This document shows, piece by piece, positions 1,553 to 17,203 of a stretch of 18,236 nt of DNA (the first letter of the stretch is position 1; the number at the start of each line of letters is the position of its first letter). The notes beneath the pieces are model-generated. The model had not been told where the DNA came from. It worked only from the letters and a program-made list of their open reading frames with translations, and ran no database searches. The stretch comes from a virus. Its lineage: Duplodnaviria; Heunggongvirae; Uroviricota; Caudoviricetes. The stretch covers positions 1-18,236 of IMG/VR virus record IMGVR_UViG_2695420732_000030; one strand, written 5' to 3'. Position numbers and translations under genes: made by a program.

Positions 1553-1741
1553 TCACGAGGACTGAAGTTTCTCGCAATTAAAATTTATCAGTTTTACTTT
1601 CTGCTCTCTGGAAACGCCTGCTTCTTTTTTACCTGAGAGCATTTTTTCGCATTCTGATTTCGTTAGTTTAGATTTTGAATATCTTGTCCAGTTAGTAGGA
1701 GTGCCACCTTCCTTTTCAATAGTGGCGGTAATTTTATACAT
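1553..1741 (-). CDS. Small YdaC-like hypothetical protein, 62 aa.
   Basis: The start at MYKITATIEKEGG has GGAGGTG just upstream on the minus strand and overlaps the ralR stop (ATGTATAA). The longer 86-aa track ORF is probably an over-extension. Confidence 0.7.
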   Translation of the reverse strand: MYKITATIEKEGGTPTNWTRYSKSKLTKSECEKMLSGKKEAGVSREQKVKLINFNCEKLQSS

Positions 1742-6392: not shown

Positions 6393-6463
6393 CCACCCAT
6401 AACACTGATGCTTTTAACTGTGCCGCGTGCGCTTAGCCGCATTCACCGCATCACAAAATTCAC

Positions 6464-6512
6464 TTTAAAAAGGCGGACATCAGTCGAACTTCAAGAAAAA
6501 ACTGATGCCGCC
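6464..6512 (-). terminator. Possible minus-strand intrinsic terminator, in a tL-like position upstream of kilR.
   Basis: On the minus strand the sequence is GGCGG-CATCAG, an 18-nt loop, CTGATG-T-CCGCC, then TTTTTAAAG. The large loop weakens the call. Confidence 0.4.
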
Positions 6513-6643
6513 AAGACTACACACAGCAGTGTTGTTAGTCACAACCGGAGGCGCACTCCCACCATTTAAATTTAACAGACAAGACCGACTCTTTATGGAT
6601 ATCGGAAATGCGCCTTCGTGTTGTGCCCGGTTTTATTTCACCA

Positions 6644-6668
6644 CCTCCGGGCTTCGGTGGTTTTCGTT
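6644..6668 (+). terminator. Plus-strand intrinsic terminator.
   Basis: CCTCCG (6644-6649), loop GGCTT, CGGTGG (6655-6660), then TTTTCGTTATT. An alternative pairing is CCCGG 6626-6630 with CCGGG 6647-6651. Confidence 0.55.
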
Positions 6669-6691
6669 ATTCCCCAACAGCGAAAATTAGG

Positions 6692-7042
6692 TTAATCTGA
6701 ATATCCCCCAACAGATGGAAGGATTTTTCTATGCTCGAAAATCAGACCTTGAAGGTTGCCTGCCCTGATTGCGGCAGTGAGATGCTCAAGCGGCCCGATG
6801 ATTTTGACTTTGACACTAATTTCGTTGGCGTTAGTTGTGCCGAATGTGGTCGAGAAATCACTAAGGACGATGTTATTAAGCAAGGAAAAAATGTAGTTCA
6901 GAAACAAGTCAATGACATGCTCCGGAACACCCTCAAAGGCAGCGGGTGGAAGTTTAAATAACCCATGTATCGCACTAAAGTGTTCCGTTACTTCTGTAGC
7001 GTCTATGGTAAGTTTGATAGGCGCTATTTTCACTCCCGTCAT
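6692..7042 (-). CDS. Alternative 116-aa ORF antisense to the zinc-ribbon ORF. It is either a shadow ORF or a genuine overlapping gene.
   Basis: SD GAGGTG lies 6 nt upstream of its ATG, about 70 nt downstream of a near-consensus promoter. However, it sits in the classic -1 shadow frame of the plus ORF and has no recognisable motifs. Confidence 0.3.
   Translation of the reverse strand: MTGVKIAPIKLTIDATEVTEHFSAIHGLFKLPPAAFEGVPEHVIDLFLNYIFSLLNNIVLSDFSTTFGTTNANEISVKVKIIGPLEHLTAAIRAGNLQGLIFEHRKILPSVGGYSD
6731..6961 (+). CDS. Small zinc-ribbon protein of unknown function, 76 aa.
   Basis: SD GGAAGGA lies 8 nt upstream. Two knuckles, CPDCG (res 11-15) and CAECG (res 36-40), are 21 residues apart. 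Of its codons, 70% start with a purine. The C-terminus is charged. Confidence 0.6.
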   Translation: MLENQTLKVACPDCGSEMLKRPDDFDFDTNFVGVSCAECGREITKDDVIKQGKNVVQKQVNDMLRNTLKGSGWKFK

Positions 7043-7118
7043 ACATCACCTCAAATCTTTTCCCTTAACGCCGGGTGGCGGAACTAAAACCTACAGCGCC
7101 GTGCTGTTCTCGATAGAA

Positions 7119-7147
7119 ATATTAGTGACACGTATATTTTAAGTCAA
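7119..7147 (-). promoter_or_regulatory. Near-consensus sigma70 promoter reading leftward. It is the candidate pL for the kilR-recET-xis-int operon.
   Basis: On the minus strand: TTGACT (7147-7142), a 17-nt spacer, TAATAT (7124-7119). An A/T-rich UP-like tract lies upstream at 7148-7170. Confidence 0.6.
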
Positions 7148-7243
7148 CAGCAAGGCGTATTATATTTTTGATTTTGTAACTATGTAAATGTTTTTCAAGG
7201 GAAAAATATTAGTTATACAGCTGATTTGCAGAAGTTATGGCAC

Positions 7244-7276
7244 AAAAAAAACCGACTAAGACGTCGGTTTTTTTTT
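7244..7276. terminator. Bidirectional intrinsic terminator, ending the repressor gene on the minus strand.
   Basis: A8 (7244-7251), CCGAC (7252-7256), a 6-nt loop, GTCGG (7263-7267), then T9 (7268-7276). Confidence 0.85.
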
Positions 7277-7302
7277 GTTGTGGGTGGGGTAGTGAGCGGT
7301 GG

Positions 7303-7764
7303 CTACTGGTTACGTTTCTTTAGTGCCAGCATGTTCTCGAAGGCTTCCTCGTAGAGCTTGTTTAGTCCACGTAGCTGGTTAAGGAGTTTGGCTTTTTCTG
7401 ACGCAGGTAGAATCTCGAAGAGGTTAAGTAACTCTGCCTGTTCTTCATTGACCAGCCTCCATCCTTTGCCTGAAAAGCTATCATCATAAGTATCTGATGA
7501 TCTTACATAATTCATTAAGTCTTTAAGGTCTTCTCGAATGTCCTCTGGTTTTACCTTTAACAGAGCCGCAAATTTTAGCGCAGCGTCGGTATTTACCGGT
7601 ATCTTGCCGTTCAGATACTGGCTAACGGTGCCTTGAGATTCGAATCCCAACAACTCAGCCGCCAACTCTTGAGTCAGCTTCAGCTCTTTTTTTCTTGCAT
7701 TCCATGCGGCTTTTAAATTCTTGCTCGCTTCTGGAGTTGCAATCACTTCGCGTGTTTTTTTCAT
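7303..7764 (-). CDS. Prophage repressor, HTH XRE-family, in the RacR/CI position, 153 aa. It has no S24 peptidase domain.
   Basis: The HTH is LTQELAAELLGFESQGTVSQYLNG. The gene is divergent from the cro-like gene across a 107-bp AT-rich control region. No SD precedes the ATG. Confidence 0.85.
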   Translation of the reverse strand: MKKTREVIATPEASKNLKAAWNARKKELKLTQELAAELLGFESQGTVSQYLNGKIPVNTDAALKFAALLKVKPEDIREDLKDLMNYVRSSDTYDDSFSGKGWRLVNEEQAELLNLFEILPASEKAKLLNQLRGLNKLYEEAFENMLALKKRNQ

Positions 7765-14184: not shown

Positions 14185-14244
14185 TGCTGCGGGTGCTTGA
14201 GGCTATCTGTCTCGGGCATGAACACCAACGGCAGATAGAGAAAA

Positions 14245-14311
14245 GCCCCAGTTAACATTACGCGTCCGGCAAGACGCTTAACATTAATCTGAGGCCATAT
14301 CTATGCTCTAC
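14245..14311 (-). ncRNA. sok: Sok-like antisense RNA. The ends are approximate.
   Basis: The minus strand carries GTAAGAGGCTAACCT (-10 TAACCT, 14323-14318), homologous to my recollection of the R1 sok promoter GTAAGAGGCTATCCT. The RNA is antisense to the mok start. A hairpin GCGTC/GACGC lies at 14262-14277. Confidence 0.5.
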
Positions 14312-14515
14312 ATACGTAGGTTAGCCTCTTACGTGCCGAAAGGCAAGGAGAAGCAGGCTATGAAGCAGCAAAAGGCGATGCTAATCGCCCTGATCGTCAT
14401 CTGTTTAACCGTCATTGTGACGGCACTGGTAACGAGGAAAGACCTCTGCGAGGTACGAATCCGAACCGGCCAGACGGAGGTCACTGTCTTCACAGCTTAC
14501 GAACCTGAGGAGTAA
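14303..14515 (+). CDS. mok: Mok-like in-frame upstream extension of hok, 70 codons.
   Basis: The ORF begins 19 codons upstream of the hok ATG in the same frame. This matches chromosomal mok/hok loci as I recall them. Confidence 0.6.
   Translation: MLYIRRLASYVPKGKEKQAMKQQKAMLIALIVICLTVIVTALVTRKDLCEVRIRTGQTEVTVFTAYEPEE
14360..14515 (+). CDS. hok: Hok/Gef family type I toxin, 51 aa.
   Basis: MKQQKAMLIALIVICLTVIVTALVTRKDLCEVRIRTGQTEVTVFTAYEPEE is a canonical Hok/Gef sequence. SD AAGGAGAAG is present. Confidence 0.92.
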   Translation: MKQQKAMLIALIVICLTVIVTALVTRKDLCEVRIRTGQTEVTVFTAYEPEE

Positions 14516-16548: not shown

Positions 16549-16624
16549 GGCCCTTTAGCTCAGTGGTGAGAGCGAGCGACTCATAATCGCCAGGTCGCTG
16601 GTTCAAATCCAGCAAGGGCCACCA
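16549..16624 (+). tRNA. ileZ: tRNA with anticodon CAU, ileX/ileZ-like (tRNA-Ile2 after lysidine modification; formally Met by anticodon).
   Basis: I folded the cloverleaf by hand. The acceptor is GGCCCTT/AAGGGCC. The D arm is GCTC/GAGC. The anticodon loop is CTCATAA. The T arm is GCTGG-TTCAAAT-CCAGC. ACCA is encoded. It closely resembles E. coli ileX. Confidence 0.9.
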
Positions 16625-16633
16625 TATCACATA

Positions 16634-16710
16634 CCGCCATTAGCTCATCGGGACAGAGCGCCAGCCTTCGAAGCTGGCTGTGCGGGGTTCAAGTCCCCGA
16701 TGGCAGTCCA
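16634..16710 (+). tRNA. argN: tRNA-Arg (anticodon UCG).
   Basis: The acceptor is CCGCCAT/ATGGCAG, with a C2-A71 mismatch. The anticodon arm is CCAGC-CTTCGAA-GCTGG. The T arm is CGGGG-TTCAAGT-CCCCG. TCCA is encoded. Confidence 0.8.
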
Positions 16711-16723
16711 TTATCAGCATCAT

Positions 16724-16800
16724 GCGTTGTTAGCTCAGCCGGACAGAGCAATTGCCTTCTAAGCAATCGGTCACTGGTTCGAATCCAGTACAACGCGCCA
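16724..16800 (+). tRNA. argO: tRNA-Arg (anticodon UCU, reads AGA/AGG).
   Basis: The acceptor is GCGTTGT/ACAACGC. The anticodon arm is ATTGC-CTTCTAA-GCAAT. The T arm is ACTGG-TTCGAAT-CCAGT. GCCA is encoded. Confidence 0.9.
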
Positions 16801-17086
16801 CACCACACTTATCTGCCCTGACTCTCTTTTGCGGGCTTTTTATTACAGGAAAGACACCGGACAGTGAAATGTTAAATGCCTCACAATTCAGGTAGTTGAC
16901 TGTTGCCTGACATGCTGAGCGTTTGTTAAAAAAATCCTGCATGATGAATCCCCCTGGGCGGCGGGGCATAATGACAGATGTTTGGTTGCGTATTGTATAG
17001 GCAAGTTGCGGATTCTGTCTGGTCATTGCAGAATTCACCGGGAGGCACCCGGCATCATGCTGTATACAGAGATTAGGCATATATCC

Positions 17087-17112
17087 AGGCTCCTCATCGC
17101 AGGAGCCTTTTT
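17087..17112 (+). terminator. Plus-strand intrinsic terminator.
   Basis: AGGCTCCT-CATCGC-AGGAGCCT followed by TTTT. Confidence 0.75.
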
Positions 17113-17118
17113 ACATGC

Positions 17119-17143
17119 AAAAAAAGCCCGAGTAGGTTCGGGC
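17119..17143 (-). terminator. Minus-strand intrinsic terminator, back-to-back with the previous one.
   Basis: On the minus strand: GCCCGA-ACCTAC-TCGGGC followed by TTTTTTT. Confidence 0.65.
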
Positions 17144-17203
17144 AACAGCATGAGATACTTGCATTGTCATTTTTATCGTGTGGATTTTAACCAGGGTTTA
17201 TAA

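Follow-up and report, generated by a model that had tools for sequence, protein, structure and literature searches.

Long antisense overlapping protein-coding genes are disputed in bacteria and their phages, where most candidates are young, narrowly distributed and based mainly on ribosome profiling. At the sieB-esc locus of phages P22 and lambda, Ranade and Poteete are said to have described in 1993 an antisense RNA, sas, that derives from the leftward promoter pL. The closest experimentally studied analogue of the locus considered here is found in Pseudomonas phage Fc02, a beetrevirus in which olg1/sie1, carried on the lysogenic transcript, overlaps gene 10 of the early lytic operon, which is read from the opposite strand; each of the two products confers exclusion (PMC9936078). 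In Escherichia coli O157:H7, the antisense overlapping gene ano and the oloz genes have been studied by RNA-seq, Ribo-seq and phenotypes (PMC5960689, PMC9927249, bioRxiv 10.1101/2020.11.18.388249). Here we analyse two open reading frames (ORFs), antisense to each other, from IMG/VR virus record IMGVR_UViG_2695420732_000030, of which the whole stretch of 18,236 nucleotides (nt) is referred to as the window. The window is a Rac-like lambdoid prophage. A putative zinc-ribbon ORF on the plus strand (plus ORF) is embedded in a longer ORF on the minus strand (minus ORF), and both lie within a cassette at ~6688-7087 (Table 1). No paper on this locus was found in the literature, nor any for ECs2282 or PDC-M14, and the O157:H7 overlapping-gene papers do not cover it.

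The initial annotation of the window had posed two alternatives, a genuine antisense gene pair or one gene with a shadow ORF on its complement. Comparative evidence favours the former and disfavours the latter: we think it probable that the locus is a conserved antisense dual-coding pair, with both strands of the cassette encoding proteins over a shared 230 bases. Both sets of translation signals are conserved and both open frames persist over ~25 lineages. The pair is favoured because the minus start codon and Shine-Dalgarno sequence (SD) are maintained, the N-terminal extension of the minus ORF is under selection, its synteny is that of a pL-sense gene and its frame has stayed open far beyond what selection on the plus frame alone would permit. 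That each frame is translated, when it is expressed and any function it has are what we infer from these comparisons.

Conservation of the two open reading frames

The coordinates first assigned to the plus ORF, to its SD and to its two cysteine knuckles (CPDCG, residues 11-15; CAECG, residues 36-40) proved correct, as did those of the minus ORF with its full coverage of the plus ORF and its overhang at either end. The plus ORF is a full-length match to the NCBIfam family NF047912 (ECs_2282_CxxC, putative zinc-binding), at 81.6 bits where the cutoff is 37, with residues 8-66 aligned to positions 2-60 of the 60-position profile. RefSeq annotates it in E. coli FDAARGOS_1287. Homologues of 73-76 amino acids (aa) were found at 164 loci in 17 nucleotide clusters and at a further 9 remote loci. 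Within the plus frame the ratio of nonsynonymous to synonymous differences per site (pN/pS) was 0.05-0.2 at a pS of 0.43-0.96; across the 62 gapless codons of 15 representatives, 57 third positions were variable, and none of the four cysteines changed in 21 aligned lineages. The AGGA/GGGA motif of the SD was kept in most lineages. Purifying selection on the plus frame is thus shown, and the comparisons identify the plus ORF as a real gene.

These data bear directly on the converse proposal, that the minus gene of the pL operon is the only real one, its complement frame having given rise to the zinc-ribbon ORF as an artefact of annotation. Gene callers and annotators do usually pick the longer minus ORF: minus protein P0024 appears on 182 contigs against 5 for plus protein P0001, and the phage records and most gene callers name the minus strand alone (HK639_45 in phage HK639 and the corresponding coding sequence of Klebsiella phages). 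However, substitutions concentrate at plus third positions, the opposite of what selection on the minus frame alone predicts. The four cysteine codons (TGY) never drift although the opposing minus Ala/Thr codons could, a plus-frame stop that would be expected with P >0.9 per lineage was never seen, and the plus gene, which matches a curated family and longer homologues, also occurs without its partner (see below). We find this proposal scarcely credible.

The isolated copy is that of Leclercia adecarboxylata NCTC13032 (locus L006, 3001-3231), where an intact plus homologue (53% identity) is flanked by arsC and the gene of an AraC-type regulator, away from any prophage, and has retained its own TANNNT hexamer and an AGGAGG; three further loci (L102-L104) are near-identical to it. 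It is also the sole lineage in which the minus frame is broken, with its N-terminal extension replaced and several stops, and so serves as a natural control for loss of the minus frame outside the prophage context. Stops in the minus frame beside a conserved zinc-ribbon gene were found in this one lineage only, and the reverse in no lineage.

Single prophage copies in Klebsiella (L054, P0006, P0013 and P0015-P0017) carry Cys-to-Ser or Cys-to-Arg changes in a knuckle or a frameshifted C-terminus of the zinc-ribbon gene. These probably reflect prophage decay or sequencing error; a frameshift in such copies would damage both frames together.

Other searches with the plus protein gave weaker or partial matches. 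Against zinc-ribbon families of Pfam and the PDB there were many weak matches, all below threshold. PHROG 4852 is matched over the N-terminal half of that longer profile, and PADLOC PDC-M14A, a candidate defence family, over positions 18-89 of 152 only (E 9.7e-7), which is a lead rather than membership, partner genes not having been searched for. The AlphaFold2 (AF2) model of the plus protein (predicted local distance difference test score, pLDDT, 62.6) has a helix at residues 45-70 and short strands at the knuckles. Neither the NF047912 definition nor the RefSeq annotation mentions an antisense partner.

An extended form of the plus protein was also weighed. The initial annotation had observed that the plus frame continues beyond its TAA stop with CCC and a 40-codon ORF, which is so, and had suggested a truncated or readthrough-extended protein. 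This suggestion is refuted by further plus-frame stops downstream in 11 of 15 representative lineages and by a plus C-terminus that is fixed in nearly all loci. The 40-codon ORF had no family matches in NCBIfam, Pfam and PHROG searches.

The minus ORF shows a different kind of conservation. Its frame, read as the complement of the plus gene, is open across that gene in 16 of 17 clusters and in 9/9 remote loci, both ORFs being intact in all nine. Beyond the plus stop it runs on for another 25-28 codons before reaching an ATG. An SD of the GAGG/GGGG type lies 3-8 nt before this ATG in 14 of the 16 lineages with a placeable start and is weaker in L089 and L161, while the sequence farther upstream is unrelated between lineages. 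In the window the SD is the GAGGTG first proposed, and the spacing of 6 nt given for it holds when counted from the GAGG core.

The N-terminal extension that lies outside the plus ORF follows the motif M..xK.AP[IL]x[LI]x[IVL]DA[ST]E...Q...L. Pairwise differences in it number 1636/1291/2214 at minus codon positions 1/2/3, a third-position excess, and are accompanied by in-frame indels and by switches between the Leu codons TTG and CTN and between the Ser/Thr codons AGY and ACN. The extension has a pN/pS of 0.63 (bootstrap over codon columns 0.51-0.74; 0/2000 replicates at 1 or above). Where it does not overlap the plus ORF, the minus ORF is thereby shown to be under purifying selection, and this in the minus frame alone.

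Against this stands the possibility that only the plus gene is real and the minus ORF is its complement shadow, left open by few Leu and Ser codons and by codon bias, with its upstream conservation belonging, for example, to the plus 3' region. The 25-28 codons beyond the overlap evolve as coding in the minus frame only, though, and the plus frame there has stops. The minus ATG and SD are moreover fixed in position, and in L166 the gene begins 3 nt past the stop codon of N.

Synteny agrees with this placement. Wherever the context is known the minus gene is in the pL sense, with a CI-type repressor upstream of it and cIII, kil and recombination genes downstream. In L173-L176 it comes after N, from which one or two short ORFs separate it, and in L167 it precedes N. 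In phage HK639 (L168, NC_016158, 2495-2842) the minus gene, HK639_45, is the first coding sequence after the annotated pL and a putL-like RNA; its annotated start is a GTG that precedes the conserved ATG by two codons, and the gene overlaps the end of the putL-like RNA by 10 nt. The complementary zinc-ribbon ORF of HK639 (73 aa) is intact and unannotated.

A hidden Markov model of the minus family, searched against 1.84 billion representatives, retrieved 33 proteins of ~95-110 aa with mutual identities of 21-39%, over which the hydrophobic pattern and the length of ~100 aa are held. The minus protein of the window matches PHROG 29546 (E 3.2e-6), as do 16 of 22 family members (best E 7.9e-13); PHROG 29546 was built from gene calls, so membership is no proof that the minus ORF is a gene. 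The family has no Pfam entry. Because the minus ORF is the first gene after pL, identity with a lambda N-type antiterminator was examined and found no support: the minus protein had no Pfam match, either to N_peptide/N36 or to any other entry, it is acidic and hydrophobic (isoelectric point 5.9, grand average of hydropathy +0.37), and a separate N gene lies ahead of it in L166 and L173-L176.

AF2 modelling from six sequences predicted a compact beta-alpha-alpha-beta-beta-alpha fold for the minus protein (pLDDT 78.7; predicted template modelling score 0.62). Of its three strands, the N-terminal one would be encoded outside the overlap and the other two would form a hairpin encoded inside it. 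If correct, this confident model also speaks against a shadow ORF.

The minus ORF might instead be translated to no end as a protein, its ribosomes shielding the pL transcript from Rho-dependent termination or interfering with the plus mRNA. It is true that the SD, the ATG and the open frame are its clearest conserved features, that an intrinsic terminator follows in many lineages, and that the C-terminal end is variable and the amino acids of the overlap are not detectably constrained beyond codon bias. The N-terminal extension is nevertheless conserved in amino acids despite synonymous turnover, and neither the maintained hydrophobic pattern and length of the family nor a predicted fold that joins the N-terminal strand to the overlap-encoded hairpin would be expected. 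Nor would openness alone need the preference described below for CTC, which reads Glu in the minus frame, over other Leu codons that do not create a stop. We therefore rate a translated but functionless ORF very unlikely.

Selection and codon choice inside the overlap

Their coordinates make the two frames exact complements codon by codon, with plus position 1 opposite minus position 3 and the middle positions opposite each other. Consequently, TTA, CTA and TCA are the only plus codons that can close the minus frame. The initial annotation was right to name this -1 complement frame, together with the shared purine-any-pyrimidine (RNY) periodicity, as a possible trivial cause of a long open frame; it had put the minus codons that start with a purine at 62% or more, and we measured 66%. 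Given the plus protein, with its few Leu and Ser codons, and the local codon usage, the probability that the complement frame is open in a single sequence is ~0.2, which means that the window sequence by itself cannot decide between a pair and a shadow.

Across lineages the expectation is different. The minus frame was open in 20 of the 21 lineages analysed in depth and in 25 of 26 overall. Evolution along the tree was simulated with selection on the plus frame only and with synonymous turnover calibrated to the data, in one version with a stop-free root. Antisense stops then arose in a mean of ~14/20 lineages, with a minimum of 4 and 0/3000 runs below 4, compared with 0/20 observed; the probability of no broken lineage under this simulation, which takes flank codon usage as the neutral equilibrium, is <1/3000.

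Compared with the genes that flank it at these loci, the plus family has an abnormal codon usage, which leans to rare, non-optimal codons. CTC provides 55% of its Leu codons (14% in the flanks) and CCC 55% of its Pro codons (13%), AGA and AGG together account for 57% of Arg (26%), and GTG and GTA for 12% of Val (41%). The codons that would close the minus frame are absent: TTA and CTA make up 0/58 Leu codons against 21% in the flanks, and TCA 0/60 Ser codons against 20%. A bias to rare codons such as CTC, CCC, AGG and AGA is not expected from translational selection on the plus gene. In synonymously saturated pairs, the identity of the minus protein was 0.306, above the 0.269 +/- 0.008 of a null model based on flank codon usage. 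Our reading is that codon choice in the plus gene holds the minus frame open and keeps its product protein-like.

Several observations weigh against dual coding. When the null model uses the codon usage of the plus family, the expected minus identity rises to 0.299 +/- 0.009, which leaves no site-specific constraint. Minus-frame dN/dS is ~1 inside the overlap, and parsimony counts of synonymous changes per plus site (mean 3.7 at two-fold and 5.3 at four-fold sites) are Poisson-like rather than overdispersed; a Pro CCC (19/19 lineages) is the single four-fold site that never changes. The sole minus-frame signal detectable inside the overlap is thus the odd codon bias of the plus gene, and the simulation treats the flank usage as neutral. 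Of five AF2 models built for the minus protein, three were poor (pLDDT 34-40), and the variability of the C-terminal end includes its truncation in Klebsiella-type and Kluyvera loci, where plus codon 2 or 4 is TCA. Finally, RefSeq, through its Prokaryotic Genome Annotation Pipeline (PGAP), calls the plus ORF only. The dN/dS, the lack of site-specific constraint beyond codon bias and the RefSeq call, together with the ~0.2 chance of an open frame in a single sequence, the exact-complement frames with their shared periodicity and the Leclercia gene that persists without its partner, are what a shadow minus ORF has in its favour.

The absence of a sharper site-specific signal can be attributed to the complement frame itself, which tolerates plus-synonymous transitions: most of these produce conservative minus changes (I/V, A/T, K/E, F/L, N/D), making dual coding cheap. 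Taking the two sides together, we consider a plus gene with a mere complement shadow quite unlikely; judged across lineages, the minus ORF differs from an ordinary shadow, and the conserved dual-coding pair is the interpretation that we carry forward.

Regulatory anatomy and neighbourhood of the cassette

Table 1. Positions of the ORF pair, its putative expression signals and surrounding features in the window
Feature	Position	Strand	Description
Plus ORF	6731-6961 (including stop)	plus	76 aa, 8.6 kDa; two CxxCG knuckles, then a C-terminal helix
Plus SD	6717-6723	plus	GGAAGGA, 7 nt before ATG
Plus promoter-like element	6670-6698	plus	-35 TTCCCC (6670-6675), 17-nt spacer, -10 TAATCT (6693-6698)
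Direct repeats	6672-6680 and 6706-6714	plus	CCCCAACAG; 34 nt apart, flanking the -10
Interleaved GC stems	6625-6661	not assigned	A, 6625-6630/6647-6652; B, 6640-6645/6656-6661
40-codon ORF	6965-7087	plus	Not a gene; complement shadow of minus N-terminus and leader
Minus ORF	7042-6692	minus	116 aa; spans the whole plus ORF, with overhangs of 81 nt and 39 nt
Minus N-terminal extension	6962-7042	minus	27 codons outside the plus ORF
Minus SD	7052-7047	minus	GAGGTG, 4 nt from ATG, or 6 nt from the GAGG core
Leftward promoter-like site	7147-7119	minus	TTGACT-17-TAATAT; -10 ends 77 nt before minus ATG (promoter scan)
Leftward promoter-like site	7188-7159	minus	TTTACA-18-TATAAT; 11/12 consensus matches (promoter scan)
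Terminator-like hairpin	7244-7277	bidirectional	A-run, CCGAC/GTCGG stem, T-run; between repressor gene and pL
Repressor gene	7303-7764	minus	HTH_3 domain; rightward cro-like and cII-like genes beyond
Leftward window genes			Integrase, RalA small RNA (sRNA), recT, recE, racC-like gene, ydaE, kilR

Two tandem sigma-70-like sites resembling pL (7119-7188) adjoin the repressor gene and are followed by a leader of ~70 nt, the SD and the ATG of the minus ORF. A small hairpin with a short T-run (ACAGCACGGCGCTGT AGGTTTT, 7107-7093, minus strand) is found in the pL leader. A GC hairpin motif, GTTCCGCCACCCGGCG (~7087-7072), lies just upstream of the minus SD and recurs in L003, L011, L013, L014 and L019; it had no Rfam match.

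The plus gene has a candidate promoter of its own, which a simple promoter scan missed because its -35 is weak. In 25/25 zinc-ribbon lineages examined, a TANNNT hexamer is found at -35 to -41 relative to the plus start codon. It is flanked by direct repeats in 18 of 21 lineages, at a spacing of 33-34 nt in most and 32 in one, and the two copies co-vary within each locus as CCCCAACAG, CCCCAATAG, TTCCACAGTCAA or CCAATGTCAA. In the window, the second repeat doubles as coding sequence for the tail 'SVGG' of the minus protein. Upstream of the repeats are two interleaved GC stems, either of which can form singly, whereas both at once would make a sterically strained pseudoknot. Both stems are possible in 14/14 lineages, with 6 variants of A and 10 of B, many of them compensatory (scored by script), and 1.5% of shuffled sequences reached at least 5 bp in A and at least 4 bp in B. 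In many lineages an intrinsic terminator lies beyond the stems in the pL sense, with a G-U pair and a U-run on that strand.

The same layout of stems, repeat, TAACAT, repeat and SD also precedes sieB in the Rac-type phage L170 (2025-2112), and because of this shared leader the plus ORF is treated as a prophage-expressed gene of the sieB slot. One possibility for the leader (6625-6714) is that it combines an operator pair and an RNA switch; another is that it forms, on the pL strand, the 3' portion of an antisense RNA resembling sas. The plus protein itself had no match to SieB in Pfam, NCBIfam and PHROG searches; slot, orientation and leader architecture are all that the two have in common. 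The terminator-like hairpin between the repressor gene and pL was read from the sequence and was not reported by the promoter scan; it would also end plus-strand transcripts.

A 31-codon plus-strand ORF (MDIGNAPSCC...) falls in 6596-6690, and some phage records annotate it as the N-terminus of an over-extended SieB. We take the true sieB start in L170 to be the ATG at 2112, just past the second repeat (ORF MLDVFTPLLK...), and on that assumption the stretch 6596-6690 is probably leader rather than coding sequence.

The cassette is placed between kilR and the immunity region, in the slot that sieB fills in other Rac phages, and the plus ORF is oriented like sieB. Its content is the minus ORF and the 45-nt leader of that ORF. 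K-12-type Rac elements match the window over 6400-~6688 and again from 7088 on, with sieB or ydaF/ydaG between, so the ORF pair appears as a 400-bp mosaic cassette, ~6688-7087, that replaces the middle between homologous flanks; the left edge is drawn where homology to sieB-type Rac elements stops, at ~6684-6688. The stretch 6400-7087 is common to E. coli FDAARGOS_1287 and E. coli R1 at 99.3% identity, and the immunity region of these two differs from that of the window (racR instead).

These features suggest how the pair may operate. In a lysogen, pL would be repressed and the plus gene would be transcribed from its own weak sieB-type promoter, ending at the ~7244-7277 terminator. On induction or infection, pL would transcribe through the cassette and ribosomes starting at 7042 would make the minus protein. 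The minus gene would thus be the first or second gene of the pL operon, translated only once the repressor is lifted, and would yield a compact alpha/beta protein of ~100-116 aa. The converging pL antisense transcript should silence the plus gene; since pL transcription is antisense to, and converges on, the plus mRNA, the two products are expected to be mutually exclusive, one belonging to lysogeny and the other to lytic growth. We infer that the plus gene is a prophage-expressed accessory gene. It possibly serves exclusion or defence, the leading guess for its role given the sieB slot, the shared leader and the weak PDC-M14A match. That the minus protein might act in escape or regulation is a speculative corollary.

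A tighter coupling can also be imagined, in which a zinc-ribbon exclusion or abortive-infection factor sits in the sieB slot, the pL antisense protein and transcript act as the escape or antidote of the phage within the first few minutes of induction or infection, and the co-varying repeats are a possible operator for cross-control. We hold this to be unlikely, though well short of negligible. If true, the same base pairs would keep effector and antidote inseparable under lambdoid mosaic recombination.

The interval from the cassette to kilR contains two sub-threshold RNA matches, both on the pL-sense strand: a DicF-like RNA (6525-6471, minus strand; 41.4 bits, just below the gathering score of 48; E 2e-7) and a weak STnc100-like match (6484-6300, minus strand; 41 bits vs 47). 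The DicF of Qin also sits in an early-left operon. At gathering thresholds, Rfam found no match for the ORF pair itself. Elsewhere in the window (1557-1735, 14191-14365 and 16549-17178) it identified the RalA antitoxin sRNA, a sok antitoxin beside a hok-type ORF, three tRNAs, STnc100 and AgvB (anti-GcvB), which are usual cargo of Rac and enterohaemorrhagic E. coli (EHEC)-type prophages.

Comparison with described antisense gene pairs

By these comparisons, the locus is a deeply conserved new example of a rare but known arrangement. It makes a good test case for the dispute over antisense overlapping genes because the type of evidence is the opposite of that behind most candidates: both frames and their signals are kept across prophages of Escherichia, Klebsiella, Citrobacter, Cronobacter, Hafnia, Yersinia, Kluyvera, Enterobacter, Edwardsiella and Xenorhabdus. 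The pair is also present in HK639, a viable laboratory phage, and the exact-complement frame means that one base change can stop one frame and be silent in the other, allowing clean genetics. The finding further exposes an annotation conflict, in which RefSeq records the zinc-ribbon gene only and phage records the opposite strand only.

The antisense genes of EHEC resemble the present pair in that an antisense ORF, embedded and equipped with a promoter and SD of its own, is proposed to be protein-coding in Escherichia. They differ in being short, mostly young, narrowly distributed and chromosomal, the three EDL933 genes being stated to lie outside phage regions. The present pair, by contrast, rests on deep conservation, its embedded partner is the better conserved of the two, and it occupies a prophage regulatory region.

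The likeness to sieB-esc/sas of P22 is one of position. The two share their slot and their orientation, in that a gene expressed from the prophage is read against the pL operon and so has pL transcripts as its antisense; the zinc-ribbon ORF moreover has a leader with the architecture seen ahead of sieB in a Rac-type phage (two GC stems, repeat, TANNNT, repeat, SD). In P22, however, the antisense partner sas is non-coding and the antidote Esc is encoded in frame on the same strand, whereas here the antisense transcript would carry a conserved ORF, and the zinc-ribbon protein is without similarity to SieB.

In Fc02, as here, the phage is temperate, the pair lies beside the repressor/immunity switch, and a small gene transcribed in the lysogen, as is predicted for the plus gene here, is antisense to a gene near the start of the early-lytic operon, so that a partition between lysogeny and lytic growth is expected. 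The two loci have no sequence relationship, Fc02 being Mu-like and of another host. Transcription of both strands and exclusion were shown by experiment for Fc02, while the present pair is known from sequence comparison; conversely, the smaller gene is here wholly embedded, in the exact-complement frame, and has been traced over ~25 lineages with selection statistics. If the partition between lysogeny and lytic growth holds true, the pair would be the enterobacterial counterpart of olg1/gene 10 and would show phages locking two functions together.

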